64,000 nt of DNA from Marsupella aquatica. Taxonomy: Eukaryota; Plantae; Marchantiophyta. The stretch spans positions 13,575,270 to 13,639,269 of the forward strand of contig OZ316892.1 of the NCBI GenBank assembly GCA_973895155.1, given 5' to 3'. Shown in pieces: positions 10,906 to 54,359 of this stretch. The notes below the pieces were generated by a model. The model was not told the origin of the DNA, did not search any database, and saw only the letters and a list, made by a program, of their open reading frames with translations. The position numbers and the translations under genes were made by a program. The stretch's first letter is position 1. The number at the start of each line of letters is the position of its first letter.

Positions 10906-11876
10906 GAGGCTGTTAGTGGAATGGGGTGTTTGACCTCCACTGGTTAACACATGTCAACATTGCCTGTCTACTAAAGTGACTAGATTGATACCCTCAAAAA
11001 AATAGGAAAATGGGACCCAATGCCTGTCATTAATATTAGCCCCGGGGGCAAACCAACTCAAGGGAAACCAAAACTAGTCTGGCCATGAGATTTGGGACAG
11101 CCACCTGATAGTGGCCAGCTCAAGTTCCCAGCTAAATTGATACCTTACTTCTGGGATTTACTAAATTGACATTCTTTTGTTGCATAATACTTACTTGCCC
11201 CTGATTTCTTTCTATTTAGCACAATGTTATTTTTTGCATTCATGGGTTTTTTCATTCATGTCCAATGGTTGTTATTGGATCTAGTGGCGCAATTGTACAC
11301 ACCAGTCTCCCTCAAGGTGACTTGACTATGTTGAGCATCGACGACAATCGCAGCAAGATGGTTCGTTGGCAAGCCCATGAACCATCCAACGCACAAGAGT
11401 CGACACAGAGAGATACGTGGTTCACCTCCACATGAGGCTACGTCCACGGGAACACACAAGAGCTTTACTGCATTCTAGGCCGACCGGCCATACCAAGCAT
11501 CCACAGCACAAGCTCTCTCTATCTCTCAACTAGCTCCGTAAGAATGAGCCTGAGTTCCACCTCTCCAAGCAAACACCACTTGGTTATAGAGTGTGCATAG
11601 CATGACTAACCTAACCAAGTCTGCAACTAAGGTTAGCCTTAACTACGATACAGTCGTAACTCTAGACCTAAGAGTAAATCCTAACAATCTCCCCCTTGAC
11701 TCTGGTCTAGGGAGGGTAAAGATTGCACCCTATATGATTGCTCAGCGGGAAGTTCTGGAAAGAAAAACCAAACTGGTTTTTCCCTCTTTATACGAGAGTA
11801 GACCATAACTAAGCCGTAGCCTATACAAGGAATGAGCAAGAGCATATCTCAGTATCTACACAAATGTTAAGTAACC

Positions 11877-19800: not shown

Positions 19801-19929
19801 AACTCTCTTGTATGTTCTCACACCACATAGAAGTTGAAGAGATAAGGACCAACTCTTCAACTAGGGTTTACTCTAACCCTAGTTAACATACTAACCACAG
19901 TTCAATCCAAGACTGAGTTAACCTCTACA
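13888..19929 (-). mobile_element. Ty1/copia LTR retrotransposon B, nested in the integrase of A
   Basis: 323-bp LTRs at 13888-14210 (ends TA) and 19607-19929, TSD ATAGG, PBS gctctaatacca. Removing B restores WDPIACKLIVSRDVSFNE in A. gag-pol 14405-~18436 is broken by stops and frameshifts. Confidence 0.97.
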
Positions 19930-22216
19930 ATAGGATCCCATAGCTTTCACACCACTCTGGTACCCAAGAAAAACACATTTTTTGGATGTAGGATCCAACT
20001 TGGTCCTATTCTGCTTTGGTGTGAGAGCATATGCATCACTTCCAAAAACTACCAAGCCATGATAGTCTGCTTGCCGCTTATAGCGCATCTCAAACGACGT
20101 TTTGAAATTGATAGCACTAGAAGGAGAAAGATTTACCAAATAAGCTGCGGTATTGACAGCTTCTGCCCAAAATTCCTGTGGTAAACTTGATTAGCTCAAC
20201 ATACTCCGTGACCGCTCCAACAGTGTCCGATTGAGCCTCTTAGCGACACCATTTTGCTGTGGAGTATAAACTGTGGTGAGATGGCAAGTTATCCCCTGTT
20301 CTGAACAGTACTCTTCAAATTCCACTGAAGTGTACTCCCCGCCATTGTTTCACCTCAGACTTTTCACCCTTGTATCCAAACACTTGACCGTGTTTCCAGT
20401 CTGATTCTCCACCTGGGCCTTCCAATTCTTAAAAATGGACAAGACATCAAACTTATGCGTCATGAAATAAATTCATATAAATCTTGAGTAATCGTCAATA
20501 AATGATACATAGTACAACTTTCCAGAGTGTGAGGGAGTTGGAGATGGACCCCACACGTCACTATGTATGTACTCAAGAACCGTCTTGGAACGATGTGTTC
20601 CAACACCGAAAGCACGACGATACTGCTTTCCAAGAATGCAATGCTTACAGAACTCTAATTTACTAGATTGCAAATTAGAAATGAGTCCATTCTTCCGTAA
20701 GATAGCCAAACCCTTCTCACTCATGTGGCCTAGCCGTGAATGCCACAGATGAGTCATCTCCTTGTGAGACTTGGTTACATTGGCCTTTCCACATACAGTA
20801 TTGTCCTGCAACACATACAAATTCTTCTGTCTGCTCCCCTTCAAGATCATTGTCTCTCCCGACCTAACTTGAAGTTCACCATCAATAACGCTCCATTGAT
20901 GACCATTTGAATCCAACACACCCAGTGAAATCAGATTCTTACGCATGCCAGGTACATACCTGACTCCGGACACTGTGCGCACAGTGCCATCAAACATTTG
21001 AATCTTCACAGACCCAATACCCTCAATTTGACAGGAGTGATCATTTCCCATCAGAACTGAACCGTTTGAAATAGAGTAAGAACTGAAAAACTCTCAAATG
21101 TAACAAATGTGAAAAGAGCAAGCACAGTCAAGAATCCACACATCATCTGCTCTCCTAGATGACATGCACAAGGCATACCCCTGGCTTCATAATACATACT
21201 CATCATTGAGTAAATTAGCATCTCCATTAGCCCTAGCCACATTTGCCGATGAAGATTCAACTGCCTTTCCCTTACAGTCTCACTTGAAGTGTCCAACCTG
21301 GTTGCACTTCCAACATGTCACCTGCCTTCTCTGAGGGGATTTGCCTCTGGATTTAGATCTAAACTGGGTTCTATGCTCCCCAGTTGGTCGTTGCATACTC
21401 CTCCCACGGTTAACAGTGAGGGCAGCACCAGAGGGATGAAGGTTGTGACGTGATGTGCATCTTCTGCTGAAGATCATCACTAAGCAGAGAACTTACCACG
21501 TCATTGTATGAAATGGTATCCCTATCACGATGCAACAACACCCGTGATAGGGATTGGTAAGATGGAGGCAATGAACTGAGAAGCTGTAGAGCCTTCGTCT
21601 CATCATTCAAAGTCTCCCCAAGGTTTTCCAAGTCAACGACTATCTCGTTGAAAGCATCCACATGGTCCTGCAACTTCGTACCGGATTCCTTCATCTTGAA
21701 ACTCATCAGTTTGTATGAAGTATAGAGCCAGTTCGACAACTCCTTGCAGTGATACTTGCTCTACAATTCCGCAAATAAGGACATGCAGTCCTTATGTGCA
21801 CCCAACTGCTTGATGATGGGAGGCATGAGATAGAGTGTAACACACCACGCTCCCTGCTCCTGCATGCGGTCTCATTGTCTCTCATCAACATCGTCTTCAC
21901 GAGGGCACAACAATTGGCCCATCCCTGACGCATAGAGCACTCCCTTCACCTGCTTCTCCCAGAGCAAGTAGTCAGAGCACCCATCATACTTTGTCACTTC
22001 ATACTTGGGTCCCCCAAGCTTGAACGTACCCATCTTCTTCTTTGGCACTACCTTGAGCTCCGGTAGTAGAACAGCTTCCTCCACCACTCGTCGCACCGGT
22101 GATGGTACCGGTGTCACATGCTCTTCCTCCTGCTCCTCTCTCTCCATCACAAACCGCCACGGTGATCCTCGTGCTTCAAGTTCCACGTCTTCAAAAATCT
22201 CCTCTAAATCACTCAT
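19930..22216 (-). pseudogene. Element A gag, protease and integrase, disrupted
   Basis: KYDG..DYLLWEKQV, CWKCNQVGH zinc knuckle, WILDCAC protease, LWHSRLGH..CKHC and HSDVWGP integrase motifs. Confidence 0.93.
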
Positions 22217-24129
22217 ATGAGAAAATCACGAAAAAATGACATTTTTCACAACTTCTCAAAAAACTCAAAACTAATCATCGCGGCGTAGCCCACGAGGCTA
22301 GGAGTCCACGAGGCTCCCCCTGGTCACTCCGGGCCGCCCTTGGAGCGAGGCGCCCTCGGGTCGCTCTTGGAGTGAGGCTCCCTCGGGTCACTCCGGGTCT
22401 CCCTAGAAACCCTGTTGCTACGAAAATCCCGCCGCAATTCCCGGACAAAGTTACTGTTCACTAGCTTTGTCATTTTCCTTGTGCCCTAGGTCGCCGCCGC
22501 ACCTCACCTCTCCGCGATGCACTAAATTGCCGTAGGAAACACAATTTGCCAACATCCAACGTTGCTTGCTGCCGCCAATTCCACGAGTAAAAATGATGAC
22601 CGCCGACGGGGAAATGTTGTTGAATTGCACAGGCACAATCTGCAAGCTCAGCAGAGAAAAAATCTTTCGTCGTGTCACACTCACTCCGCGTCAAGTGCCA
22701 ATCCCGGACTCAAAATGACCGTCTTGACGCGATCAAAACATTGAGCCATAGCACTTTGCATTTCTTCCTCCAAGATGGATGTGACGACGAGTAACCCGGT
22801 TCAGATGAGAACAAGCTCCATAGTCTGTGAAAAAATCTGAACGTCTCCTTCACTCGTCATGACGCACTCGGTAACCATTTGACAGCAACTCAACTACCAA
22901 AATGAACAGCTCGCTTTAACCTCCAACATGAGCTATAACATGCGATGCCTCCCGCACCGCACAACTCAAACCGTTGAAAAAATGATCTCTGGTTTCTCCC
23001 CCGAAATATCGTCGAACACGAAAAAACTCCAGATCGACGCAAACTTTGATTCCTCCGCACCACGGATACCGATCAGCGAGTTCTAATCACCGTTAGAAAG
23101 CCCTCTCACTATTCTATCCGTTCAGCCACACACATTCAAGTTTCATGCGACGAAACTCTGAATGTAACACCGACAATGAACGCTAGAAAACCGTCACAAA
23201 AAAGACCTCGTCACCTCCCAGGCATGCTCTGATACCAATTGTTGAGCATCGACAACAATCGCAATGGCAAGCCCATGAACCATCCAACGCACAAAAGTCG
23301 ACACAGAGAGATACGTGGTTCACCTCCACATGAGGCTACGTCCACGGGAACACACAAGAGCTTTACTGCACTCTAGGCCGACCGGCCATATCAAGCATCC
23401 ACAGCACAAGCTCTCTCTATCTCTCAACTAGCTCCGTAAGAATGAGCCTGAGTTCCACCTCTCCAAGCAAACACCACTTGGTTACAGAGTGTGCATAGCA
23501 TGACTAACCTAACCAAGTCTGCAACTAAGGTTAGCCTTAACTACGGTACAGTCGTAACTCTAGACCTAAGAGTAAATCCTAACAGACTACCCTTGGGTCA
23601 ACTGACTGAGAAGTAGGTTGGCTGGCCTCCTTACCATTCTCCTATGTATAGCCTCTGTGCAGGCAAACGGCTTCTCCGCGTCCAGAGAATCAGAGGCCGT
23701 GCTTGATGGTGGTCAAAGTCACCTTCAGGTACACTGGAACAGTATTATCATGACTCCGGATGCAATGACAACCATTGGATGTAAAGGAGATGACCTGAGC
23801 TAATTTTCTTAACCCATGAATGAAAACAATGACATGATTGTGATAAATAGGAGAAAAATCAATAACTGTTAAGATACATGCTAGTTTACTTGACTATAAG
23901 TTAACCTAACCATGATTAGGACCATATAACTCTTGTTCCTAACACCTATTAATACCAACCACACAGGAGAAGACATTGACAGTTGGAGATTTAATGTGGC
24001 ATCCTCTCGATTCTCATGGCAATGCCTTCCACATCTTCGAACAATAACAAGGTAAGTTTGCCACAAAAGAGTGGTAATCCAGAGACCCGGTACTTATTTA
24101 TGTGACAAGCTATTTTGTTATTATTTTAG

Positions 24130-33323: not shown

Positions 33324-33826
33324 CTTTCACCCCCATTTTACCCATTTCTTTGTTTATTTGAAATGTTACTTTGCACTATTCCATTGTTTTTACACTTACG
33401 AGGTCTAACTGTTTTTATTTGACTTGTCTCAAACACAAATAGTCAAATTTGGTTCTTCTTGCATAACTAACCGTGTTTGTTTGTGGCCAATATTGTTGAT
33501 GTGGCTACACATGCATCCAAGAATTTTGGAAGGAGGTTCCCATGGAGGTTTGTAATTACAAAGTAGCAAAAATACGAGAGCATGTATTAGTTTCTTCACT
33601 GACCCAAATGGAAGTTCCTTCCAAAATCCCTAGAAGCATGTGCAATCACATCAACATTAGTGGTCACAAACAAGAACTATTCAGTAGGCAAGAAGAACTA
33701 AATCTGACTATTTGTGTTTGAAGCAAGCCAAAGAAAAACAGTTAAACTAGGTAACTCTAAAAACAATGGAAATTTTTTAAAATAACACTTTAAATAAACA
33801 AAGAAATGGTTGAAAAGGGGGGAAAG
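33324..33826. repeat. Long imperfect inverted repeat (foldback/MITE-like), ~220-bp arms and ~60-bp spacer
   Basis: Reverse-complement pairs include ccatttctttgtttattt/aaataaacaaagaaatgg, caaacacaaatagtca/tgactatttgtgtttg and attttggaagga/tccttccaaaat. Confidence 0.85.
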
Positions 33827-36891: not shown

Positions 36892-37356
36892 CACCTCGGG
36901 GGTCTCACTATATGGAGGACCCCCCCATCACCTGCGACGTTTTCATGCCTAGACCCCCATACTTATTAAGTTGAAAATTTTTTTTCCTCCCTCTTTCTTT
37001 CTTCTAAGAGTCTAAAATCCAAATTGTATTGCCCCTATAATTTGTGAAGTAAAGTGTCACATATCAATATAAAATGCCTAGAAAGAAAAGATAAGTCTAT
37101 GTCAGTACCTTGTGAAGTCGTATGTCAGACATGGCACGCCCTGCAACAGTTCTTGCACCTTTGTCGACCTTAAACTTTGATCATTTCAATGCATCATTTA
37201 TATTGTGTACCTAAAAGGTCATCCCAATATAAATCTTACGTGCATAAGTGGGATGGCCTTTAAGGTCACAACATAAATAATCCATTCCACCCATTGATCA
37301 CCAATCCCATGCTCCATCCATACTCCATTTAAAACTTATGTTGAGAGATGTAACAT

Positions 37357-37415
37357 GTGACGGAGGGGAATTGAACCCCTAATTGAGAAAGGATCTCAAG
37401 TTGCCAATCCGTCAC
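37357..37415 (-). ncRNA. D-armless tRNA-like structure with B-box; possible A-box at 37428-37440
   Basis: Minus strand reads GTGACGG ATTGGCAAC TTGAG-ATCCTTT-CTCAA TT AGGGG-TTCAATT-CCCCT CCGTCAC: perfect 7-bp acceptor stem, 5+7 anticodon-like arm and canonical T arm. Confidence 0.6.
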
Positions 37416-37450
37416 CCCCTATCCTATCCCACTACACCCACTAATATTAA

Positions 37451-37529
37451 CAAAATAAAATATATATACAGACTCTCAAAAACTAAACAACAAAATAAAA
37501 CATATATACAGACTCTCAAAAACTAAACA
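37451..37529. repeat. 40-bp tandem duplication in the transposase 3' region
   Basis: caaaataaaa(t/c)atatatacagactctcaaaaactaaaca occurs twice. Confidence 0.9.
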
Positions 37530-37541
37530 GTAACATGATAT

Positions 37542-40500
37542 TCATACCATTGTTTGAAGATACTGATCCAAAGCACGTCTATCTATTGGATCCAACACAT
37601 AGATACGATCCATAACCCCTTCTTTCATGGTTAAACTAACACTAGCAATGACCATTTCAATATCCATCCATTTCAAATCAGTGGTATCATATCTGAATTC
37701 ACTTTTGCTCTTACCAATAGGACTATACCAATTTAACAACAGTTCACAAATGTTACCTGATTGCCCTGCAAGTGGAGTTGGCCTATCCATCAAATCAATT
37801 GGTGACCGACAATTGCCCCACCTACTGCCATACTTCTGTCTCATTTGGACAATCCGACCCAACCAAAAATATTTCTTACCTGCTGAGATTGCCTCCACCA
37901 CAACCTTATTCTTTCCTCCCTTTCTTTTTCCAGATCTAGTACTTGGAGCAAGACTATCATCAGACTCAAATGCAATTGCACAATCAGTGCCAACATCAAC
38001 AAAACATGAGTTAGGATTGACTTCTTGCACTTTTCTCTTGCCAGTACTATAGTATAGCACTTGTTTCACCCTTGTCAGCCTATCTTTTGACAAATGCGGA
38101 TTTCCTACCAACTGGCTTACCAGAGTGGATTTGTAAATCACCTTGCCTTCATAAGTAACAGTAGGCACTACCTTGGTACGATTCTGTACATTAGTTACAG
38201 CATGGACAACTGATCCAAACACATGCCGAACTTCATGACCTAATGTCTCAAGCTCATCTGAGGGGTCTACATCAAACTGTATATCATCTCTGTGTACATC
38301 ATCTGAATGCATCTCAGGAACAACAATGGGATCTGGTTCTGTTAACCATGCATCTATTCTATTCAGATCATCCTCAGGATCTTCCAATTCATGAAAATCT
38401 CCAGTTGGGCGAGGACCTATGTCTGGTGGTTGGTGCTCTACTTGCTCCTCAGAATCATTGCAAACAATTGCTTCCTTCAGAACCACCTCTAGTGGCCAGG
38501 TCTCACTTTCCACAACCCAAGGACATGTCCACCATCTCTTTCTAGCTGCTGGTAAGGAACTTCGTGGAGACATCTGCAATTGATGCATAAGATCCTTAGC
38601 AGCAACAAAACCTTCTTTAAGGGCTGCAACCACTAATTCATTAGTCTCAATGAGAGAATAGTCAAGTAGATTTGGTGCTTCCTCCCCTTCCCCTATAGGA
38701 TGAATCTTCCCCCATACATGATCTTGTTTCTTATGTGAACGACCTATCTTCAAGCCTTCTGGTCCATATTCTAGGGCAGCAAGCCGGTTCAGTCCAACAG
38801 CACTATCCAATAGAGAGCCAAAATCATAATTCCGCTCATGGCCACTCATGCCTCCTACCTTGCTGAAGAAAATCTCACAACAATCTGAACCTAGCAAGTG
38901 GAAGGGAACACCTAGATGTGGGAACTTATCTCGAAAGGCACAAATTAACAGCACAATGAAATGACATGACATGTTAACATCATGAAAAGCCTGAATAGAC
39001 ATCATGTCTTTCTCAGTGTGTGCTGCAAAGTTCCCACCCACTGAATGGTCACCAAACCTCAACCACAATCTCCACAAACGTAGAAAGAATGAAACCTTGG
39101 ATGCTAACACAATACGGGACCTCAAATCATGAACTGGAGAAAAGAAAATATCTAAGTAATCTGCACAAATCTCCAAGTACAACTGAGTTCCTAAACTTCG
39201 TTCATGTTGTACATCTCTCCTCTCATACATATCTTTCAGACATTGCTGCACTCTTCTTGCTGCTATTCGTTGTGGACCTGCCCAATTCTGCCGGTCAGTC
39301 CTATTCACATCATCCCAAGCCATGCCATGTTCATGAATTGGATAATGATTGTAGACATTAGCTACATAAGATAAAGATGCATGTTGATCTCCTAGCACCA
39401 GTAAAGAAGACACTCTGTCTAAGGGGTTTATCATCTTTTTCCCATTATGAGGTTGGTCTTGGTCACCAAAGCCATACAAATCTCCATTTGGTAGAATTGA
39501 AACAGAGTATGTCCACCCTTCCCACCCAACTCCGTACCTTGGGTATGATCCATTCTGCCCTCTGTAATCTTCCAGCATCAGCTTTCGGCGACGTGCATCA
39601 CCATCACTAGCATGTCCAAGCAAAGGGCCTACCATAGCTCTACAATATTCATCCCAAAAAGCCTTTAACTGGACCCAATGCTCTCGTACCCAAGAAGCTG
39701 TGAACTTATTACAAGTTGGAAGTGCACACACAGCCAATTTAGGTAAGGACTCATGCAGAGGATTCACAATCACAACTCGGGCATACATGCACTTGGGGCA
39801 TTGTTCAAATGTACTTACAATTTTATCATACCCCTCATCACCTTCACCAACTAGAATTTCCAAACCATAGGAGCATACATGCTGCTCTGAAGGTCCACAG
39901 AAACCAATGAGAGTATCATACTTTGCCTCCCACCTGAAACACAGACATGCAATTTTTCAATATCACAGCAATTCCAGCCAAGTGCTACTTGTAAAGTCAT
40001 TAAAAAAACAATTGGAAAAATGTCCAGTTCCAATTACCTAGGGCGTTCTTTGATCCTTGTTTCATCCTCAGCAAAGATAACAGGCACATCCCCCTCAATG
40101 CCCAATGAGTGCTTTGCAGCAGACAACACTCTAGCAATCTCCTGAAAGGTTTCCTTCCGTAACCCGGTTCGAAAAGGTGTGAGTTTTGCTCTATCACGTT
40201 TTAGGGTCACAAGGCTAGGGGCTGTCAAGTTTCGTGCAAAACAATGAGCAACTTGACGGCCCCCAAATTGGAACATAGCCTGAGCAATAGCTCGAGTCCT
40301 ATTACTGTAACGATTACCTTTTGGCTTCCTGCCTAAATTGCGAGCTACATCCTTCAAGAAATCCCACAAACCCTCCTTACCACCAAATGCACCATTCCTG
40401 TGTCCATTCAAAATACTCCTAAGAAACAATCTCAAATCCTTCCTGTCTGCTGCAACTCCTAACAACTCCTCTAGTTTTCGTTTCCTGGTGCTCAAGGCAC

Positions 40501-42118
40501 ATACTTTCTGAGCCTGCAAAGCTAACAACCAACGCTCTTTTCGTCGCACAGAGTTCAGGTTGTGCACTTGATCTCTTAACTCTGTGTTGGTCAAATAATC
40601 CAAACGTATACCACCAGCAGTGGTTCGGCTCCCTCTGTGGACTACTGCTTCCGCTTCCCTGTGCACCCGTCCACGAAAATCATCTTCTAGTGTTATAGAA
40701 TCACATTCACTACAAGTTAGATTTTCAAATCCTCCTCCATTCTGTGATAACCTCAAGCAATCCTTGTGTCTAAAACAGCCTGCTATACTCACAACACTCT
40801 CTCTACTTGGATGGAAAACATCCAAGCAACAACTTGGCTCACAATGCCATGTAATTCCCCCAGACTGATCATCTAAAATGCCAGAAATATCATAAGATAT
40901 ACCCTTCCATAACAGTCGAGGCACACCTCTCTCTACCCATAATCCCCAGCAAAGCAAACTCAGACCAAGATCAACAGATTCACACACACCTGAACCTGAA
41001 CCTGAACTGCTGCCTGTCCGGGACCCATCATCTTTAAAGAACTTCAAAATCCCGCTCTGACCAGGATGTAGGTCCCTAGAATCAGTCCTCTTTGGCCTGC
41101 CCCTCTTCCCAGACCTCAAGGCAAGCATTTTTGTGTCATGCCTAGTCTCCAATGCATCCAAGTGATCTCGACTCACTAAGTGTGTCCTCAAATTGGGCTC
41201 CAAGGTAAGCTTCTTGGGGCACAAGTCAGTGTGAAGCATTCCACAGACAGTACATCGAACCTTAAACAGGAAAGACCTGTTTACATACTCAGGAGTACTG
41301 GGATCAGGAACAATAGAGAATAGTTTGCCATCATCCCCAAGCTCAGCATTCAATCGTTGAACTATCTCAACACCTACTTTGATGGCGTCTGCATGATCAT
41401 ATTCTGGCTTCTCAGAGATGTCTGCTACCTGAACCAAAGTAGAAGGAATGCCCCTTCTCCGACAATAGTTATCCTTGTGCTTATTGAAGACCAAGTGTTT
41501 GGTCTTAAAATTACTAAAGCAATTGGAGATGGATTTAGGGTTCTGAGAGTTGTCTGCATTGCCATAAGTTTCCCTACATTCAAGACACTCCAGATGCCCT
41601 CGAACATCTGTCCCCTCATCCCAGGTACGAATTCTCCAATTGTGATCACCATAACCCTTCTTATGTACCCATTTCTCTAACCTCATCCACTCATCTTTCC
41701 ATAGCTTTGATGGGACATCTCCCATCAATTGTGACTCAAAAGAAGCCCTTACAGGGGAGGGTGCTAGTGCCGTTGGCCCCAGTTGTGGTGTCCCAGTATT
41801 TGGACCCAATGATGCAGGAGTGCAAGGATGACAGGGTACTGGTGGGATCCTCCCACCATCTCCAAGTTCTTGTTGTACAACAATAACTCTTCCATCCAGC
41901 TCAGACAGATCAATTAATTTCTCATGTACAAGTTTCACTCGACCAGGAAGTCTCTCATCCCAAAAATCAAAGTCAAAGTCTAGAGTAGAGGCAATACGAG
42001 CCCTAAAATCATGTAGGGTGTGTCCTTCTTTGAATGACAAAACACAAATTGGTAAATCAGCCTTGTCATCCCCAACTTTGCGTATTAATTTAACAGAGTT
42101 GGGTTTAGGGGCTGCCAT
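37542..42118 (-). CDS. P-element-like DDE transposase, ~1490 aa, two exons (42118-40038, 39933-37542)
   Basis: A 104-nt intron (AG|GTAATT..TTTCAG|G) joins the 694-aa and 773-aa ORFs in frame to give IFAEDETRIKERPRWEAKYDTLIGFCG. Further motifs: HASDGD, DQPHNGKK (DxxH), DRQN, GTQLYL..YLDIFF, LGSDCCEIFFS. No internal stops. Confidence 0.85.
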
Positions 42119-42613
42119 TGCAATACAAATCTAGAACATGCATAGCACCATTGCTTTTGGAGTTGATAACAGAAAGACCTGCACAAATACATTTGAAATA
42201 CACACAAGGGAAACACATTAGGATCTTCAAGAGATGCAATGACAACATACACATTCTCATGTAATGTACATAATGTCAGCATACATTTAACAATAGAAGT
42301 GCTAATAGGCCAAAACACTTTATAATGCAATCCATCATACATGCAAATGTATTCAGTGAAAATCATGATATACCGCTAAAGTTGGATAAAATATCTTTGG
42401 ACAAAATATCCTTTTCGCCTGCTTTTCTAACAATTCCCGAAGTTTAGTGCTTCTGCTCATCAAAATGCAGCACTATTAGTGACCTTAATTATGACAAAAT
42501 GTCAACACTAATAAAATTGGGTACTACCACCCATGATGCACCTTAAGTATGTGCCTTGCTCATACCCCACTAAGACGTTGAAACCTAAGTAATAGGTTTG
42601 TTCATTATTCAGA

Positions 42614-43288
42614 TCATTGGAGCCATGAAATGTGGTCCCTGATTGGAGTCTTGAGGTGTGGATCAATAGGATGACGGGGGCAATAAAACATCTGTCGCTG
42701 TTGTCCATGTGCTTCATGGTCCCAGATGTCCCTATCATGAGCGAACCCTTTGCTTTTGATCATCTGGAGACAATCTGTATGCCAGGCATTTGGACATCGT
42801 AGACATTGTACCATGTTCTTGACCATCTGACCCTCAAGACTCTGATAACATGTCACACATGTATGCAGTGGGCAGGACTTTGCATCAGCTACCAAACACC
42901 CAAAGCAATAAAATCGTACACAAAAACGATCAGAGCATTTTCGCACAATTGTAGGTGACGGTCCCACAGTGCGGCACCCATAACACATGGCCTGGTCCTG
43001 GTTACAATTTGGGCAAAACCATGGCTTCCCTCCATGATGGAGGGGAAGGACTACACAGGGGCAAGAGTCATTAGGGGCTTCATCTCCAACCACATAATGA
43101 AATTGCCTGTGACATGGCCCATCACAAATTACCAACTTCCCACCATGCTCACAAATTGCACAAACATGAGGGCTAGTTTGTAGAATCTCTTGCTCAGAGA
43201 ACAACGGAATACGCAATACCTCTTCCAAAGAGGCTCCTCTGTCAGAGGACTGTGTTGCTTTCTTTATGTTTGAAGTCCTTGTCGGCAT
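42614..43288 (-). CDS. EDM2-like composite PHD-finger protein (transposon cargo)
   Basis: CAICEHGGKLVICDGPCHRQFH..WFCPNC..CYGC..CSDRFCVRFY..CPLHTCVTC..QCLRCPNAWHTDCL..FYCPRHPIDPHLKTPIRDH. The Cys/His spacing and the YCxxHxIDxxLxTPxRDH ending recall the EDM2 PHD cassette. The true 5' end is uncertain. Confidence 0.8.
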   Translation of the reverse strand: MPTRTSNIKKATQSSDRGASLEEVLRIPLFSEQEILQTSPHVCAICEHGGKLVICDGPCHRQFHYVVGDEAPNDSCPCVVLPLHHGGKPWFCPNCNQDQAMCYGCRTVGPSPTIVRKCSDRFCVRFYCFGCLVADAKSCPLHTCVTCYQSLEGQMVKNMVQCLRCPNAWHTDCLQMIKSKGFAHDRDIWDHEAHGQQRQMFYCPRHPIDPHLKTPIRDHISWLQ

Positions 43289-43604
43289 GGTTCAACTGCA
43301 ATCATCACAAAGCACATCACATATGAGGGGGACATGATGATAGTGAGCAATCCATAGACAAAGATAAGGTTAATCATAGCACCTGCTCCAATGATCTGCA
43401 AACCTCCCTCCCAGATGAAGTCAACTACACAGTGCAACCTGAACACCCACCAACCAAGACATACATAAATACAATGCCAGCTTGCAAAACTTTGCCACAT
43501 AATGGGAATGAAAAATATTCTCATATATCATGGATGGTACAATTGCAGCCTTGCAAACAAAGGCCTAGTCATATATGAACAACGCATCCATGTACTATCA
43601 AGGA

Positions 43605-44003
43605 CTACAATGTCAAGCATCCATGGGTTGTAACCTTAGCTTGATCTGATATACTATCTGGGGCTACAATATCAAGCTCAGTTGAATGTGGAATACTATC
43701 AGGGACTACAATGTCAAGCGTGTCCGGGATGACAATCTTGCGTAAAAGACACTCATTTTGAGGCCAAATGGTTGGCCTTATACAAGAGCACTTCCAACGA
43801 CGTGTGACAACTTTGCCATGCTTTCCCATGTATGTCCTAGTAACAAGCCTTCCACGCATTTTCAAGCAGAAGCAATGGAACCATTCAAAATTCCCATCAC
43901 CAACCCTGCACTTGACACAAGGTTCACACCAGCAACATTCATCTGGATGCTGCAGAAGGAGCTTCTCATAATTCGCTTCTAATGTAATGCCCAATATAGC
44001 CAT
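43605..44003 (-). CDS. Small Cys-rich PHD-like ORF or exon (cargo)
   Basis: CCWCEPCVKC..EWFHCFCL..WKCSC; good start context (gccATGg); possible donor after 43635; DIV(V/A)PDSI repeats. Confidence 0.5.
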   Translation of the reverse strand: MAILGITLEANYEKLLLQHPDECCWCEPCVKCRVGDGNFEWFHCFCLKMRGRLVTRTYMGKHGKVVTRRWKCSCIRPTIWPQNECLLRKIVIPDTLDIVVPDSIPHSTELDIVAPDSISDQAKVTTHGCLTL

Positions 44004-45242
44004 GGCACTATTTTTTTATACTCGGTGAATGGCCAGACGATTAGACGTGCAATGACAGGCAACTTACAATTCACTAGGTACACTATGTGTTCTAGCAAAC
44101 TGCTTCACCGCAAGTGTTGGTGCTCACTGCTGCAAGCGCTGATGACAACCTCTACAATTCCTTTTGCAACCTGTGAACAAAATTGAAACCACCATTCAAT
44201 TTCTAAGTTTCAAAAACTTCCCATTACATGAAGACAACCAATTGGCCATGCATGTTACTACAGCAATAAAATAATAACCCAATCGCTCAACAGACCTGAA
44301 TAGCTAACCTGAATAGGATCAAGTTCAGAATCCAGAATGGTAATGCCCTTGCCCAGAAGCTTGAGAAACAAAAGAGAATTTAAAATCAAGCACGAGCGTC
44401 ATCCACGTCTTGACCAGGCCCGCCACCCAGTATGGCTGGAGGCTGTGGTCCCCCCTGGCTGAGTAAACACTTAAAGAAGTCTTCTCTTCTAGATGACTTA
44501 AAGAAAATTGCAGGAACCAGCCAACGGGACACCAAGGCATGTAATAGAGAACCAGATTTGTGCGGGTGTGTGGGGGACGACAGAAGTCAAGTTACATGAT
44601 TTTTTTCCTGGGGTCCAGCCCATGGATGGAGATCATGTAAGGTGGTCAATCATGGCAAGTGCAATCATTGGAGACCTGTACTCGCGGTTACTCTAACGAT
44701 GCATCCAAAAAACATGTGCGTCAAGTCGTCGATGCGGACACAGAAGGAGAGATGAGTATGGACAACGTCGAGACAAATGACGACAATACTGAGCTAGTAT
44801 TCGGCTGGGAAGTTGGAGCTGGATCTCAGCAGTGGCTCCAAACCTTATCTGCGAGGGCATGGCGAGCTCTGGAGGACAAAATACTCAAAGAGCTTATCGC
44901 CATTCACGGAGCTCAGAACAGGAATTTTATAGTTGAAAAGCTAAACGGGCAGATCAGGTGCTTCCTCGTCTATGACCGCTACCAGATCGACTCTAGGTGT
45001 GCCATGCGTGATAGATTTGGGCGTCAAATAGTAGCAAGCAAGCAAGTACGATCGTCAAAGTAGGCAGCGCCTACCTCCCGATTGAGCAACGCAGCAATGC
45101 AGCTCCAATCCTGGCACTCCGGTTTGAGATATCGCAACACTCCCTGCAGTAGCCACCTCCCGTTTCAGCAAGCTAGCAGCTCCCATTTTAGAAAGCAGCA
45201 ATGCAACACTCTCGACACCCACCTCCCGGAGCGCAACACTCT

Positions 45243-46090
45243 TGCTCGATCCTTCACTCCCGGGTTCACTTCAAGCAGCAGCGCAGCTACAAAGTCTCGC
45301 TCTCCCCTTCACTCCCGGGTTCACTTCAAGCAGCAGCGCAGCTGCAAAGTGTCGCTCTCCCCTTCACTCTAATCAGCACACGCAACTGAGAAGTCTCGCT
45401 CTCTCCTTCACTCTAATCAGCGCACGCAACTGAGAAGTCTCGCTCTCCCCTTCACTCTAAGCAGCAGCGCAGCTGAGATGTCTCGCTCTCCCCTTCACTC
45501 TAAACAGCAGCGCAGCCAGGAACTCTTGGTCGATCCTTCACTTCAAGCAGCAACGGCAACAGCACAGCCGAGAGCGCAACACTCTCGCTCTCCCCTTCAC
45601 TCCAAGTAGCAGCGCTTCACTCGATCCTTCGCTCGATCCTTCGCCGAGAACTCTCGCTCTCCCCTTCACTCTCGCTCTCCCCTTCACTCCTTCGCTCGAT
45701 CCTTCGCCGAGAACTCTTGCTTGATCTTTCACTCCAGCCGCAGCAGCAACGCAGCTCGATCCTTCTCCGAGAAATCTTGCTTGATCCTTCACTCCAGCCG
45801 CAGCAGCAACGCAGCTCGATCCTTCACTCCAGCCGCAGCTCGATCCTTCACTCCAGCCGCAGCTCGATCCTTCACTCCAGCCGCAGCTCGATCCTTCACT
45901 CCAGCCGCAGCAGCAACGCAGCTCGATCCTTCACTCCAGCCGCAGCAGCAGTGCAGTCGAGAGCACAACAGGAGTCGATCCTTCACTCCAGCAACAGTGT
46001 AGTCGAGAGCACACTCTCGCTCGATCCGACCTTCACTCCAAGTGCAGTCGAGAGCACACTCTCGCTCGATCCGACCTTCACTCCAAGCAG
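45243..46090. repeat. Complex tandem array inside D with 24-, ~45- and ~55-bp units sharing a CCTTCACTC core
   Basis: cgatccttcactccagccgcagct repeats at 45817-45910; ccttcactctaatcagc..tctcgctct units at 45361-45510; about twenty core copies by eye. Confidence 0.9.
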
Positions 46091-48734
46091 GAGCACAACT
46101 GGTTTAGACCCCGTTTAGGCCATTTGCTGCAAGGTACAAACAAAAGAGACTCTGTTGAGGCAAAGAGCGGGTGGGGCCAAAGGGATAGTGGAGGGAAACG
46201 ACACGGGAGGGACTGACAAGGGCCAATTGAGGTAAACGAGACACGTTAAACAGAAAAATTTCAAACTTAATCCCGGTCAAACCCTAAACGTGAGTCCCCA
46301 TAAAACCAGATCATTCTCAAATTCTTGCCATGTTAACATATTAGAAAAATTAGGAAAATATATTGGGAATGTTATGTGTGCCACGTGTACCAATGACATA
46401 GTGACATGTGTACTTTACATAGTCCGACACAAAGACCCCCTAACTTCTTTGTATGCCTTCCATCTACAAAGTCAAAAATATTAATATCCCTATTATTCTT
46501 ACAAGTTGTCCAACATATAAAGTTGGCCCTATTGTTCTTACACAAATCTTCTTAAGTCTTCCGAGAAACCCAATTAACGGACCCTATACTTCGTCGCACG
46601 TGATATGAGATTTTCGCGGAGTGAGACCCCCGAGATGGTGACGGGGTCACTGTTTGCCAGAACCATATCGTAACTTAGCGTTGGATTATAATTGTGTATA
46701 TAAACTGAAAGACAAATCATTTGTCGTGTAAATCATTTGATATCTGACATTATACAAGGAGAACTTTGCTCTAAACCGCCTCCGCATGACTCATTGATCA
46801 TGTAATCACCATACCTAGTAACGAAGGTAGAGCCTGACCGCTGTCTTCAATGTGGAAACTGTCTCTGTAGTTATCAAACACTCAGCACCTTCCTCACATG
46901 TTAAGTAGATATTGAATGGCAAATGACAAAGTTCATAAACTTTCTGGCCTTTGGCAACCCAAACTTTTAAAATCAAATAAAACAATGAAGCCGGGCAACT
47001 AAGCCTTGCCCAACTCATATATAGGCAGCACCATAGATTGACCCAATCCATTGCTCAGGGCTTTCCCCGGCAGTTTGGGGAGGCATAAACTGCCACTCTC
47101 CCCATAGCAAAACCTGGTGAATCCACAGTACTAAAATAAGTCAATAATATTCTCAAGAAATTTAAAAAGTGCACCATTTTGTCCTCCCTGAAGCTAGTGG
47201 ACAGTGGAGGTTTAAGCACCTGTTACATGCAACAGAGCCCTTATCATACTCTACAAGCAGGTCTACAAGCCCCTCCACGTGGCAGGGAATTTGGCAGGTA
47301 ATTTGGCAGGTAATTGAACCTTACACCTTTAGATCCTTGAGTCAATCTTCTTCTTAGCTCAACAAGTCTCACTCAAGTTTTACTTTTACATCCCAACTAA
47401 AATGCAAGATAGAAACTAGAAAAGTAGCTGGCTTTGATTAGTTGGCTAGGGAATTAGCCTGGAACCGAGAGGTCCCAGATACAACCCCCCTCCACACGCA
47501 AGGGATGTAAAGGCAGTGTGGAGATGTGCAATGGTGGGAGTATTGGTTTCTCCTTGTTAAGAATTGCTCTTAGTCTTGTGACTCATAGGTTATGGCACTT
47601 AGGCTAACCACAGTTAGGATCTTAGCTGAGGTTAGGTTAGTCGTGTGTGACCTTGTATATACCAGGGCTAGTGTAAGCCGCTGGTGTGGTGTGCTTACGG
47701 ATTGTAACGGAGAAACTTGAGGAAGAGGGAGAGCATGTGTGTTCGTTTACTCTTGAAGTAAAGCTTGAGTGTTCGTGTGGACGTAACCTTGGAGAAGAGG
47801 TGAACCACGTAGAGATTGTGTCAACTACGTGTGCATGGAATGAGTCATGGTTGTATGGTCGTTGCAAATGACATCTTAGTTCAACAATTGGTATCAGAGC
47901 AAGCCTGGGAGGTGACGTTGAGGTGATCAAATTTTTGTGACGTGTTGGCGACGGTTTTTCCAGCAGTTAGAGTTGGTGGATTTCACGGAGATCTATTGCA
48001 TGGAACTTGGAGGTGTTGGGCTCAACAGATAGATCGGGGCAAGGGCTTTCCGACGGTGCAAAGAAATCTCTGAACAGAGTTCGTGGTGCGGAGGAATTCA
48101 TGTTTCCGTCGTTCTGGATTTTTTGTGATTCGTGTTCGACGGTTCTTTGGGGGGGGGAACTGAGATCGTTTTCCCGACGGTGTGAGCTTTGTGGTGCACG
48201 AGGCGTCACAATCTTTAGCTCAAATCGTAGATCGGGCAAAGCTGATCATTTCGGTAGCTGGTTTGCTATCGAGGGTGTAGTAGTGCGATGTACCAAGCAA
48301 AAGAGCCGTTCTGAGTTTCTGACTGGCTATGGAGTCTTCTTTTGACTGAAGCGCGGTTTCTTGTCGTTGCGTTCGACTCAAAGGAAGAAACGGGAAGTGC
48401 AACGGCTCAACGGAGAGATCGCGATGCAGTGGTCATTTTGAGTCCAAGATTGACACTTGACGCGGAGTGAAGGAGTCGTGACGGGAATTTTTTACTCTGC
48501 TAGAGTTGCAAACGGTGCCGGTGCAATTCGGTAACATTTCCCGTCGACAACTAGTCTTTATCTGGTGTAAAGTGATAACGGCAGTGTGAGTAACCCAACA
48601 AATTTATTTTTTGTGCACATTTTGCCTTAGAATAGGGCCTTTTTGGTGGTGTGTATACACACCCTCCCGACCCTTGCACCCCTGTCAATACCCCGTTGGC
48701 AACCCCCTCCTCCTCCTCGCTAATACTCCCATCG

Positions 48735-48890
48735 CGGACGTCCCGGCCGTCCCAGACGTCGCAACCGGCACAGACGTCCCAGACGTCACGGCCGGCGAGG
48801 ACGTCGCGGCCGTACCGGACGTCGCAGCCGGCACGGACGTCCCAGACGACCTGACTGTCGCAGGCGTCTCGGACGTCCCGGCCGTCGCAG
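48735..48890. repeat. GC-rich degenerate ~18-bp repeats in the leader of E
   Basis: Recurring gacgtcccagacgtcgc and ggacgtcccggccgtc units. Confidence 0.75.
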
Positions 48891-49605
48891 CTCCATCCCT
48901 ACCTATTTTGACTTGGTTTTTTACTCCACGGCCCCCTATGCACTGCCTGGCCCGTCACGCGTCGCCTATACGCGGATGCACCTTTTTTAAGACAGTATTT
49001 TTGTGTTAAGGGGCTTAAACCCCCTTAGGCCCGGTTTTTTAATCCTTTCCAGGCTTCTCATTCGTTAAACGGCATCTTGGGCCCGGTGACCCACCAAATT
49101 AACCGCTTGGACAGGGGGAACGACCCCCTGTGAGACCTGTTGCACAGTCCAAGGAATATTCCGAAAAAAACAGAGAGCTGTTTTTCGGCCTTTAGTCAAA
49201 GATTCCAAGGTCCGAACAGTAACTTTTTTTAGATCTTTTTTGGCGAGAACGTAGCCACTGAAGCTAGCAACTCGGTGCACCACTCGATTTGAAGTTCTGA
49301 CGACGGGTGGTACTTGGAATTTTTCTTATTCCCCAAGGTGGTCAAAACGGGGAAGAATTTTTGAGTTTTACCCACCCCGACCAAACGTGAAAAAGTTTTT
49401 CGTCGGAACTCGATTTCAATTTTGGATTTCAGCGTTGGCTTGCTAGGTTGGTGGGCTAAGTGGCGGTGATAAGTTTCAAGTTTTTTGGAAAGTTGCGAAA
49501 AATGACATTTTTTCGTGATTTGGATTTGAGTCAACGAGAAGGAAGGAAGGAAAAAGCATATAAGGAGTAGCACAGCAATAGCACGTGGAGAACATTGGGA
49601 GGATA

Positions 49606-52600
49606 ATGATGGCATCTAAGTTTGGAGGTGTCAAGTTTGAGGTGGAAAAATATGATGGGCGCACAGATTATTTGCTATGGGAGAAGCAGGTTAAGGGAAT
49701 TCTTCGTGCTATGGGCCTAGATTATCTGCTATCGACTCAGGAGGAGTCTAGCAGTGAGGAGGAGATTCCGTTGAGGAAATGGAGGCAAGAGCAAGTGATT
49801 GCTGTGAATGTGGTTATGCTGTATCTGAAGCCGCATATCATTAAGAAGCTGGACGACTACGAGGATTGCATATCCTTATTCAAGGCCCTCAGAGAGAAGT
49901 ACTACCGAGAGGATGCCTCAGATCGGTTGTACAAGAAGTCTCTCTTGATGAGCTTGAGGCTAAAAGAAGGAGGCAAGCTTCGAGATCACTTGGATGAATT
50001 CGACAGCCTAGCTGTAGATTTGTCAAATCTTGGCAAGGGAGTGGAAGATGAAGATAAGGCATTGCTTCTTCTCAGTTCCTTACCCCCTCGTATCAAAGTT
50101 TGAAGCAGGTTCTCTTGTATAGAGATCTCAAAACCATTTTATATGATGAGGTGGTAAGCTCTTTGTTGTCAGATGATGCACAGAAGAAACTGGGTCATGC
50201 CCAAACACCATCTTCATCTGGCAGTGCATTGAATGTAAATCGCGGGAGGACTCAACAACGGATGACTGGTGAAAACAGGTCCTTTTCACAAACGTACCCC
50301 TCACGGAATAGAGGCAAGGAGAAGGCTCACTCTAAGTCTAGATCCAGGTCTAGAGAGAAATCTCTAGAAAGGAAACCAATTATATGCTGGAAATGTAACA
50401 AGCCTGGCCACATGAAACGAGACTGTCGAGTCAAGCAGACTCATCAACCATCAGCGAACGCAACCACTGATGTTGATATGATTGACTTGCTTGATGATGA
50501 AATCTTGTGAAGTCCAGATGTTGCCCTTTGCATTTCATCCAGTAACAATGGTGATGAATGGATTTTAGATTGTGCCTGTACCTATCATATTTGTTGTATG
50601 AAAGAGTTTTTTACTTCTTACTCAGTATCAACCGGTTCCGTGTTGATGGGGAATGATCATCCTTGTCAAATTGTTGGAATTGGATCCATGAAAATTCGGA
50701 TGTTTGATGGAGCTGTCCGAACAGTGAGTAATGTCAGACACATACCTGACATGAAAAAGAACTTGATTTCTCTTGGAATGTTGGAAGCAAATGGATGTCA
50801 GTGGAGTCTGCTGATGGTATTCTTCAAGTGTCAACCGGAGGCAAGGTTGTCATGAAGGGTAAGCGGCACAGGAATCTATATTTGTTGGAGGGCAACGTGA
50901 TTTGTGAAGAAGCCAATGTAACTAGATCTCAAGGCGAGATGACTCAGTTATGGCACTGCAGATTGGGACACATGAGTGAAAAAGGTTTTGCGGTACTTCG
51001 CAGGAAAGGACTTCTTTCTAATTTGGAATCTACTAAGCTAGATTTTTGTGAACACTGTGTGCTTGGGAAGCAGCACAAGAGAACCTTTGGTGTTGGAACT
51101 CACAATACCAAAGCTATACTTGAGTATGTACATAGTGATGTGTGGGGTCCAGCCCCAACTCCCTCACTTTTTGGAAAATTGTACTATGTCACGTTCATTG
51201 ATGATTACTCACGGTATGTGTGGATCACATTTCTACACGCCAAGTCTGAAGTTTTTGGCACTTTTAAGAAGTGGAAAGCCCAAATTGAGAATCAAACTGG
51301 ATCCAAGGTGAGATATCTGCGATCAGATAACGGCGGGGAGTACAGTTCAAGTGAGTTTGAACTATATTGTGTAGAGCAAGGGATTACTCGTCATCTCACG
51401 ACAGTTTATACTCCTCAACAGAATGATGTTTGTGAGCGGCTAAACCGAACACTATTGGAGCGATCGAGGAGTATGTTGAGCCAATCAGGTTTACCACATG
51501 AATTTTGGGCTGAAGCTATAAATACAGCAGCTTATTTGGTAAATCTTTCTCCTTCAAGTGCAATCAATTTCAAGACGCCGTTTGAAATGAGATATGGACG
51601 GCACGCAGACTATCAGGTTTTGAGAGTCTTTGGAAGTGATGCATATGCTCTCACACCTAAGCATAATCGATCTAAACTAGATTCTACTTCCAAGAAGTGT
51701 CTTTTTCTTGGTTATCAACCAGGTGTGAAAGGTTATAGGCTATGGGATCCAGAAGCTTGTACGTTGCTTGTCAGTAGAGATGTATCCTTTAATGAATCCA
51801 GATCATCAAAGGAGGGGGAGAATGCTCAGGCTTCCCGTACTGACAAAGGTAAATCTCCTATCCTGGACCATGTTGTGGGGGAGATTGGTCATGAGAGTTT
51901 TCATGACATAAATGAAGGAGGTGCTCCGAGAATGGATCTGGTTCCGGTATTGGAACAAGAGGAGCAAGTTGTTGTTGGAATACCTCAAATTCAACCAACA
52001 GAACAAGATCAACCAGAATCATCAGCTAGAAAATCAAGACGTACTACTCAAGCTCCTACAAGGTATGGACAATGGACAGATTCATCAAGGTTAGATGATG
52101 TTGACATTGCACCTGAAGATGATGACAGAGCACTGATCTTGGAAGAAGGAGAACCTTCTCCTTATCATGAGGCGTGCATTTCAGACGAGAAAGATGAATG
52201 GAATGCAGCGATGCAGAGGGAGTTGCAATCTTTAAGTGACAACAGAACATGAGAGCTGGTGCAACTGCCAAGTGATCAACAAGTGGTGGATAGCAAATGG
52301 ATTTACAAGCTGAAGGACAACTCTTCAGATGGAGGAGACAAGATATACAAGGCAAGGCTTGTTGCCAAGGGATTCACTCAAGAGAAGGGAGTGGATTACA
52401 ATGAGGTCTTCTCTCCAGTTGCCAAGTATTTCACGATACGAATTTTGTGTCAACTTGTTATGTTTTTTGATCGATCTGGTGTTAGATCAAATGGATGTTG
52501 TTACTGCTTTTCTCTATGGCACCTTGGAAGAACAAATTTTCATGAGGCAACCACTGGGCTTTGTGAAGAAGGGCCAAGAGAGTTTAGTTTGCAGGTTGCT

Positions 52601-53741
52601 TAAGTCCTTGTATGGATTGAAGCAAGCTCCTCGACAATGGAACAAACGGTTTGATGATTTCATGCTTGCACAAGGATTCACTAGGATGGTGTATGACCCT
52701 TGTGTGTATACAAAATCAGTCAAGAATGGTGTGTTTGGTTTGCTCATTCTGGTGCTCTATGTGGATGACATGTTGATTGCGGCTAAGGATCAAACTGAGG
52801 TTGACAAACTCAAAGCAAAATTGAGTTCTGAATTCCGAATGAAGGATCTTGGGAAAGCCAAGAAGATCTTAGGTATGGAGATTACGAGGAACTTTGAAAC
52901 TGGACAATTGTGGCTGAATCAAGGCAAGTATGCTGAAAAGGTACTTGCAAGATTCAACATGGAAAATTGTAAGCCAGTAAGTATTCCTTTGGCTCCACAT
53001 TTCAAGTTATCATCGGCTTTCTGCCCCACGGATCCAGTGGAGAGAGGCTTGATGACTAAGGTTCCTTATGAGAAGGCAGTGGGCAGTCTAATGTATTTGA
53101 TGACATGTACCAGGCCTGATCTAGCCCTAGCAATGGGCAAAGTGAGTAGATTCATGTCAAATCCAGGGAAGGTACATTGGGAGGCTGTGAAATGGATTCT
53201 CAGGTATCTTAAGGGCACAATAGACTATGGTCTGTTATTTGATAGTAGATCAAACAAAACCAAATCTTTGGTTGGCTATGTAGATTCTGACTACGGAGGC
53301 TGTCTGGAAACAAGGAGGTCAACGACTGGGTATGTGTTTACTCTTGGAAGAGGATGCATAAGTTGGAGATCTACCTTGCAGAAGTGTGTATCTCAGTCTA
53401 CTACAGAAGCAGAATATGTTGCAGCAGCAGAAGCAGCAAAGGAAGCAATTTGGTTGGATAAGCTGGCCACTGAGATGGGATTGGAGCATGGAAAAATGAC
53501 TCTTCATTGTGACAGCCAAAGTGCGCTTCACCTAGCTATAAACCAGGTTATGGATAGCAGGGTGAAACACATTGACATCAGGTACCATTTTATTAGGCAA
53601 GCAATGTCTGATAAAATGTTTGAGCTAGTCAAGATTGATGGAAAGCTCAACCCGGCTGATGCTTTTACCAAAGTGATTCCTTTGGAGAGTTACTCAAGAC
53701 ATCGTGCTACTTTGCAAGTTTTGCATTTGCAGCACAAGTAG
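49606..53741 (+). pseudogene. Element E gag-pol with frameshifts and stops
   Basis: EKYDG..DYLLW, CWKCNKPGH, WILDCAC, HSDVWGP, RSDNGGEY, YVDDML and KHIDIRYHF motifs; lesions near 50090, 50810, 52250 and 52470. Confidence 0.95.
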
Positions 53742-54359
53742 AGTAACTTAATAATATGTAATTTTTGTATATGGGTTACTCAATCCTGTTATGGCTACGG
53801 CTTAATTCTAGTTAACCCTTAGTTAACCTTAAATGGTTTTTAGGGGGACACCTATGGTTTTAGGTGATTGTCTAGAATTTCCCGTTGAGTATCTCATATG
53901 GATAGCAGAAATTGCAGTCTCCAAGACTAGAGTCAAGGGGGAGTTTGTTAAGAATTGCTCTTAGTCTTGTGACTCATAGGTTACGGCACTTAGGCTAACC
54001 AAAGTTAGGATCTTAGCTGAGGTTAGGTTAGTCGTGTGTGACTTTGTATATACCAGGGCTAGTGTAAGCCGCTGGTGTGGTGTGCTTACTGATTGTAACG
54101 GAGCAACTTGAGGAAGAGGGAGAGCATGTGTGTTCGTTTACTCTTGAAGTAAAGCTTGAGTGTTCGTGTGGATGTAGCCTTGGAGAAGAGGTGAACCACG
54201 TAGAGATTGTGTCGACTACGTGTGCATGGAATGAGTCATGGTTGTATGGTCATTGCGAATGACATCTTAGTTCAACACTCCTCAGCCTCTAGCTGGTCAC
54301 TTTGGGGCCCTAGTCCAACTCTCTCTCCTTCCTAGTATGGGTAGTGTTGGATCCCTGAC

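Follow-up and report, generated by a model that had tools for sequence, protein, structure and literature searches.

What is the tRNA-like sequence that follows the transposase gene in this stretch of DNA, and what might it do for the element that carries it? In the window, by which we mean the whole stretch of 64,000 nucleotides that was analysed, the earlier note had placed such a structure about 125 nt past the transposase stop, and had suggested that it processes the 3' end of the transposase mRNA, yields a small Pol III RNA or insulates the element. Our analysis indicates that the RNA element is real and conserved and that it has apparently not been described before; its mechanism can only be predicted.

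The structure occupies positions 37356..37415 of the minus strand, in sense orientation to the transposase, as delimited by pattern search, Rfam and RNAfold, and measures 60 nt including A73 or 59 nt from G1 to C72. G1 (37415) is located 126 nt 3' of the transposase stop, which ends at 37542, so the position given in the earlier note is confirmed on the minus strand (37415-37357). The acceptor stem pairs 37415-37409 with 37363-37357 (C72 at 37357) in seven of seven Watson-Crick pairs. It is followed by nine unpaired nucleotides with a GG (37408-37400) that replace the D arm, by an inner 5-bp stem (37399-37395/37387-37383) around a 7-nt loop (37394-37388) that contains T33 and then CCT at 37392-37390, by a 2-nt linker, and by a 5-bp T stem (37380-37376/37368-37364) with the T loop TTCAATT. 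A73 at 37356 follows the acceptor and CCA is not genome-encoded, while a G run at 37416..37419 of the minus strand supplies a genome-encoded G at position -1 in the window sequence and in variant contigs. In the inner loop, A at position 32 and T at position 37 are non-canonical for a decoding tRNA. The sequence GGTTCAATTCC has a single occurrence in the 64-kb window, at 37377.

The tRNA-like fold is real in the window copy. Its RNAfold energy is -24.6 kcal/mol (z -4.66), none of 200 shuffles being equally stable, and the strict pattern of acceptor, T arm and inner hairpin has one match in the window and none in 300 Markov null windows. The perfect acceptor on a canonical T arm and the missing D arm described in the earlier note were all seen, and no D stem is present in the fold predicted by RNAfold. 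The minimum free energy structure moves one A-U pair (8+4 versus 7+5 bp) and narrows the loop to 5 nt; inclusion of 30 nt of the upstream flank results in an alternative fold with a z-score of -0.28. A loose version of the pattern has 19 matches in the 300 null windows. ARAGORN, one of the tools that the earlier note had proposed as a check, called no tRNA there when applied to the window, and the Rfam scores are below the gathering cut-offs for both tRNA (RF00005, 20.8 bits, cut-off 29) and mascRNA (RF01684, 23 bits, E 0.079, cut-off 42.5), the latter being the best non-miRNA Rfam match.

The host of the structure is, by its predicted gene and end anatomy, a 9.7-kb P-element-like DNA transposon at 36895-46634. 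Its 15-bp terminal inverted repeats (TIRs) match each other in inverted orientation at the 3' end (36895..36909) and the 5' end (46620..46634) of the element, and many different flanks join the element at 36895 in all four runs examined. The transposase is encoded on the minus strand by exon 1 (40038..42118), a long N-terminal part with no Pfam match, towards the end of which inspection places the first catalytic D, and by exon 2 (37542..39933), which contains the second D, the DxxH and the E of the catalytic core and ends with the stop at 37544-37542. A 104-nt GT-AG intron predicted from sequence (39934..40037, minus strand, frame kept) unites the two ORFs into about 1490 codons. Residues D120, D167-H170 and E361 are invariant across 22 transposase sequences, the first D being assigned by inspection. 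In the Atlas, the closest clusters consist of P-element transposases (0.95, 197 shared features), and the top two Foldseek matches are the Drosophila P transposase, the best one (6p5a) having a probability of 0.99 but an E-value of 0.046. Pfam and PDB sequence searches gave no match and left the transposase unclassified, and a THAP domain was not detected, the upstream ORF having no Pfam match and no Atlas hit. Named relatives of the transposase come from Riccia, Adiantum and a coral. Between the stop and the structure, the U-rich 3' UTR contains a 40-nt tandem duplication (37449..37528), at which X2 and X3 contigs skip 44 nt. A further ORF on the minus strand (42614..43291; Pfam PF23004, E 5.8e-8) encodes NSD-like variant PHD fingers, and its product is possibly a chromatin reader.

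Among related elements, one complete locus (L003) has an 8-bp target site duplication (TSD), and three loci (L002, L003 and L006) terminate in the same seven bases, CTCGGGG. The window copy has no TSD and its flanks are unmatched, a Copia retrotransposon stopping at 36894 with its 5' half not in the window and unrelated sequence beginning at 46635, which suggests a later rearrangement. The true TIRs rule out a Helitron end, and the TIRs together with the diverse flanks at 36895 rule out a Dada-type insertion into a tRNA gene. Several other features were observed in and around the element. A subterminal motif of ~13 bases with an E-box-like core is present at both ends (36927-36939 and 46590-46602), ~30 nt inside the TIRs, and is a possible transposase-binding site. 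Short tandem repeat arrays occupy 45200-46100 in the 5' part of the element. Outside it, the window has a long imperfect inverted repeat at 33330-33821 (162-nt arms, 80%, AT-rich, MITE-like) and three LTR-bounded Copia elements (11329-23592, 13888-19930 and 47554-54277), one of them nested, with LTR pairs that are 94-97% identical. An exon of a nearby cap-binding-protein gene shares 89% identity with Calypogeia fissa and 77% with Marchantia paleacea, which makes a leafy liverwort the likely host. At L033:2702 a terminus like that of L006 starts exactly where the transposase match ends, suggesting that one family member was inserted into another.

Conservation of the structure was assessed in the contigs of six of eleven runs, representing organisms A to F; runs X1, X4, X5, X10 and X11 were left out. 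The structure is covered by contigs of five of the six organisms (A to E; the window may itself come from organism A), and X9 (organism F) gave no contig over it, possibly a false negative. In two organisms the structure is an island between unalignable flanks. In X7, alignment is limited to the end of the element, the structure (37355-37417) and the coding sequence, and in X8, with 0.00 of sampled words shared, one contig matches at 37353-37387 and nowhere else. Summed depth in the bin 37358-37388 is higher than in both adjacent bins in four of four runs examined, depth not being equivalent to copy number. Translation of the 30 letters that precede the structure in X7 gives a motif similar to the C-terminal ends of related transposases, and a stop 11 nt ahead of G1; a C-terminal motif of this kind with a stop, defined post hoc, occurs in 44 of 127,940 window 30-mers. 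In one X3 contig the structure adjoins a different upstream sequence. The alignments of X3, X6, X7 and X8 run 1-3 bases past A73 (window 37353-37356) before the flanks diverge, and a short conserved trailer is therefore possible.

Within the structure, as judged from these contigs, the stems and the T loop are conserved, in contrast to free change in the loops and flanks. All three listed substitutions and the single listed deletion among variant contigs fall at unpaired positions. In a variant acceptor, G-C replaces A-U at pair 4 and A-U replaces G-C at pair 6. The two strands of this double change sit on different contigs and organisms, the 5' strand coming from loose ends of X2 and X3 and the 3' strand from one X7 contig of depth 4; they are tied by the jump that X3 cover makes at 37362, by a linker change that they have in common at 37381 and by a downstream flank found in both X3 and X7. 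The variants of X7 and X8 are altered at position 5 of the 5' acceptor strand, X8 additionally at position 7, and have two and three differences, respectively, in the 3' half; these were counted with no positions listed, and compensation in both acceptors would fit the counts. The earlier note had raised the possibilities that the structure is absent elsewhere or that its stems lack compensatory changes; copies were found in five organisms, with stems that appear to be kept or changed on both sides.

The unpaired parts behave differently. The inner 5-bp stem does not change, while the loops that it closes in the window, X7 and X8 (7, 6 and 7 nt, respectively) are unrelated and have no triplet in common. 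Since this 'anticodon' loop varies freely, the CCT triplet is without meaning, and the non-conserved loop rules out a decoding tRNA. The 5-bp/7-nt arm with T33 and CCT that had been noted earlier is thus present in the window, but its triplet is a feature of this copy. The linker that replaces the D arm varies from 9 to 12 nt among variants and keeps the GG, except in a minor X3 lineage (depth 91 of 5622) in which the first G is lost. G-1 is present in X3 and X7 variant contigs, position -1 not being visible for X8, and position 73 is G in one X7 contig. The most conserved part of the structure includes the B-box-like 11-mer. A conserved upstream G-quadruplex was ruled out by the absence of G runs from the X7 flank.

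The structure was also searched for in 80 loci of distant relatives with a best-segment identity of 26-51%, many of which stop short of the 3' UTR. A one-sequence covariance model, which finds one copy in the window, did not find it in any of the 80 loci. The pattern scan of the same loci gave two antisense matches, neither of which folds as a cloverleaf; ARAGORN found nothing in 48 of them, and Rfam gave no tRNA-like match in 8. Thirteen 3' regions of distant loci were inspected. Pattern scans of viral contigs for the structure had no matches. The structure would therefore belong to one branch of the transposon family and would not be needed for transposition in general. One distant relative that lacks it has a 34-nt inverted repeat of 91% identity in its 3' region (L003:5682-5944), so 3' hairpins may be more widespread in the family.

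Two features that the earlier note did not mention, a tRNA-His-like acceptor and a conserved hairpin further 3', bear on the origin and surroundings of the structure. A search of GTDB with a pattern of the T arm and acceptor gave three matches, all three being tRNA-His and one having the acceptor of the variant. Because this pattern fixed the last three acceptor bases, a control was run: of 81 viral matches with the same acceptor end, 61 were called as tRNA (20 uncalled) and 44 of the 61 as tRNA-His, so the acceptor end is His-enriched rather than His-specific. Among these 44 prokaryote-type His tRNAs, 42 have C73, versus A73 in the window. The window has G-1, A73 and an unpaired GG, and most variants seen keep G-1 and GG; G-1 and A73 are described as His identity bases in the available text of PMC8127992. 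The structure likely derives from a histidine tRNA.

The hairpin (37185..37290, minus strand) has a pre-miRNA-like shape and begins 65 nt downstream of A73 (z -7.69); it is more stable on the sense strand (-45.3 kcal/mol) than on the opposite one (-36.5). It is an aligned island in a diverged X2 and X3 subfamily in which its flanks do not align. No miRNA-type target was found within the window, and its Rfam miRNA matches are far under the cut-offs. On the 5' side, the A-box-like 12-mer reported in the earlier note is present at 37429..37440 of the minus strand, 13 nt before G1, but is probably a chance match: its pattern occurs 45 times in the window on both strands (0.35 per kb), an exact A-box consensus has no match in the 3' region of the element, and the motif is missing from the AT-rich upstream flank of X7 (organism D). 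The B-box-like sequence in the T arm is perfect and is kept among variants. A T4 tract is found at 37334-37331 in the window copy; some X3 copies have lost it, and the 30 letters downstream in the X3 variant, X6 and X8 contain no T4.

In the explanation that we consider best, although with somewhat less than an even chance of being right, the structure is predicted to be a mascRNA-like site for protein-only RNase P (PRORP) and RNase Z in the 3' UTR of a Pol II transcript. We arrive at this reading because the PRORP determinants are kept and the anticodon, A box and T4 are not. In the text of PMC4797305 that was available, the minimal PRORP3 substrate consists of the acceptor and T domain, both a D-less tRNA and an acceptor-T helix that carries a 9-nt bulge are cleaved at the normal site, and U54, C56, R57 and A58 matter to PRORP; D-less substrates are cleaved less efficiently (PMC4797305; PMC4919922, also in part). 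The window structure has all four of these bases and the 7+5 bp geometry. Pol II would read through the structure in the transposase transcript, the host PRORP would cut ahead of G1 or G-1, RNase Z would cut behind A73, as it does for mascRNA, and a 60-nt RNA would be released and receive CCA. PRORP1 is able to cut tRNA-His at -1 or +1 (PMC2995067), and a released mini-RNA bearing G-1 is therefore possible. By inspection, no ENE-like A tract or triple helix was found in the 126 nt upstream, which are U-rich and then G-rich, so the cut mRNA would have no evident protection. It is tempting to speculate that the cut limits or separates the mRNA more likely than it stabilises it: a fixed transcript end might keep the downstream hairpin and terminal repeat, which could otherwise feed small-RNA silencing, apart from the coding RNA, and cleavage with no triple helix might lower transposase output. 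The processing of the transposase mRNA 3' end by RNase P and RNase Z that was suggested in the earlier note finds support in the anatomy and in stems that are kept where loops vary, as far as sequence can tell.

Alternatively, RNase Z alone might cut, with CCA added and the end charged with histidine, so that the message would end like a tobamovirus RNA, be stable and be translated free of poly(A). We regard this main rival as unlikely. The tRNA-His matches in GTDB and among the viral controls fit it, as do the G-1 and A73 identity bases, and in viral tRNA-like structures of the His type (TLS-His), too, the anticodon loop is variable and an unpaired GG serves as a D-loop mimic (PMC8127992); an encoded G-1 with no GUG anticodon would also suit an RNA that has no free 5' end. 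On the other hand, the viral acceptors in that source are pseudoknots; that of the window, being a plain helix, should be cut by nuclear PRORP whatever the leader length (PMC4797305). The His likeness may reflect ancestry alone, given that the pattern fixed the acceptor end, and the X7 contig with G73 does not fit. The full version, in which the transposon captured a tRNA-His as a virus-style mRNA end with RNase Z cleavage, CCA addition, charging through G-1 and A73, poly(A)-free translation and release of the hairpin, appears distinctly unlikely; if true, it would be a cellular Pol II mRNA with a tobamovirus-like end. The relation of TLS-His to poly(A)-independent translation is reportedly the topic of a 2025 preprint. 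The charged end could further serve as a tag for cell-to-cell mobility, in the way that 3' tRNA-like tags carry Cas9 mRNA to the germ line of grafted Arabidopsis (PMC10344777, in part), but the host is probably non-vascular, and a partly available preprint (10.1101/2020.04.13.039131) describes Marchantia and Physcomitrella as having no tRNA-mRNA co-transcripts found. Since a tag that lacks the D and T loops is still mobile in the available text of PMC10344777, mobility alone would fail to explain the kept T loop.

Transcription by Pol III from an A box and a B box inside the transposon, giving a small RNA perhaps joined to the hairpin as in gammaherpesviruses, looks quite improbable. The perfect B-box-like sequence, the A-box-like 12-mer with its 3' end ~50 nt upstream, the T4 and the strong downstream hairpin conserved in one diverged subfamily would all suit such a gene, and gammaherpesvirus TMERs are indeed Pol III genes of a tRNA and hairpins cut by RNase Z (PMC4337559, in the part available). 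However, the A-box-like motif does not rise above chance and X7 lacks it, and T4 is not conserved and, where present, would stop Pol III ahead of the hairpin, for which no target was found in the window; the small Pol III RNA of the earlier note is weakened accordingly. A neutral relic, be it a captured tRNA fragment, a SINE head or a dispersed host repeat, seems improbable as well. The Rfam scores under the cut-offs, the 80 distant loci with no structure, and the unclear surroundings of the structure in one X3 contig and in X8 are in its favour; against it, the structure is kept amid unalignable flanks, the listed changes are in loops, and one variant has two paired changes. No direct repeat of at least 7 nt is present within 60 nt on both sides, nor is there a simple-repeat tail, and with TSD and tail both missing the local features speak against a tRNA-derived SINE. 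A role at the DNA level, with TFIIIC bound to the B box against heterochromatin or with the sequence as a transposase-binding part, is highly improbable, even with the B-box-like 11-mer in the most conserved part and the element lying among nested Copia retrotransposons; it does not require paired acceptor changes or a second stem that stays invariant while its loop varies, and the insulator once proposed accounts for the B box only.

By comparison with known systems, described here from the available portions of the sources, the predicted processing site is closest to mascRNA and menRNA of MALAT1 and NEAT1, which are likewise ~60 nt long with a 7-bp acceptor and a canonical T arm, no true anticodon and no encoded CCA (PMC12941219, PMC4919922), and the window structure, too, is predicted to lie inside a longer Pol II transcript. 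Those RNAs belong to vertebrate lncRNAs, whereas the window structure belongs to the protein-coding 3' UTR of a plant DNA transposon; it also differs by having no D hairpin, no upstream triple helix, a score below gathering and no sign of homology. By prediction it acts like mascRNA and is not a member of the mascRNA family. The tobamovirus-type TLS-His has, like the window copy though not like every variant, His-type identity bases and an unpaired GG, and it shares the variable anticodon loop and a location 3' of the coding region, but has a pseudoknotted acceptor and a 3' CCA (PMC8127992), in contrast to a plain helix with no encoded CCA that is internal in a nuclear DNA element. The nearest plant precedent is GUT15 of Arabidopsis, a tRNA-like RNA from a Pol II and not a Pol III transcript, which is intronic in an lncRNA rather than placed in a transposon 3' UTR (PMC6152437). 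The gammaherpesvirus TMERs have the same order of a tRNA-like module and then a hairpin; they are Pol III genes with proven miRNAs, whereas the Pol III signals of the window are not conserved (PMC4337559). The transposon itself agrees with the P superfamily in its DDE core with DxxH, short TIRs and, in L003, an 8-bp TSD (7-8 bp expected), and departs from it in having no detected THAP domain, CTC ends, a predicted ~1490 aa, an extra PHD ORF, a plant host and the tRNA-like 3' module (PMC3698922). Dada is also a DxxH-type DDE transposon linked to tRNA sequence, but it has no TIRs and inserts in small RNA genes (PMC3706591); the window element has TIRs, and its tRNA-like sequence lies inside it, at 460 nt from the end.

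Among the top literature matches, which mostly excluded subscription papers and Repbase reports, no prior description was found either of a eukaryotic transposase followed by a tRNA-like structure or of a P-element-like lineage with CTC ends. In the part of PMC12941219 available, MALAT1 and NEAT1 are the only lncRNAs described as matured by the tRNA-processing machinery. With a conserved tRNA mimic after a transposase, such maturation would reach a protein-coding transcript, a selfish element and plants in which RNase P is protein-only. It would suggest a route by which DNA transposons may shape an mRNA end and handle silencing, and it marks a P-element-like lineage with CTC ends in liverworts, a fern and cnidarians.
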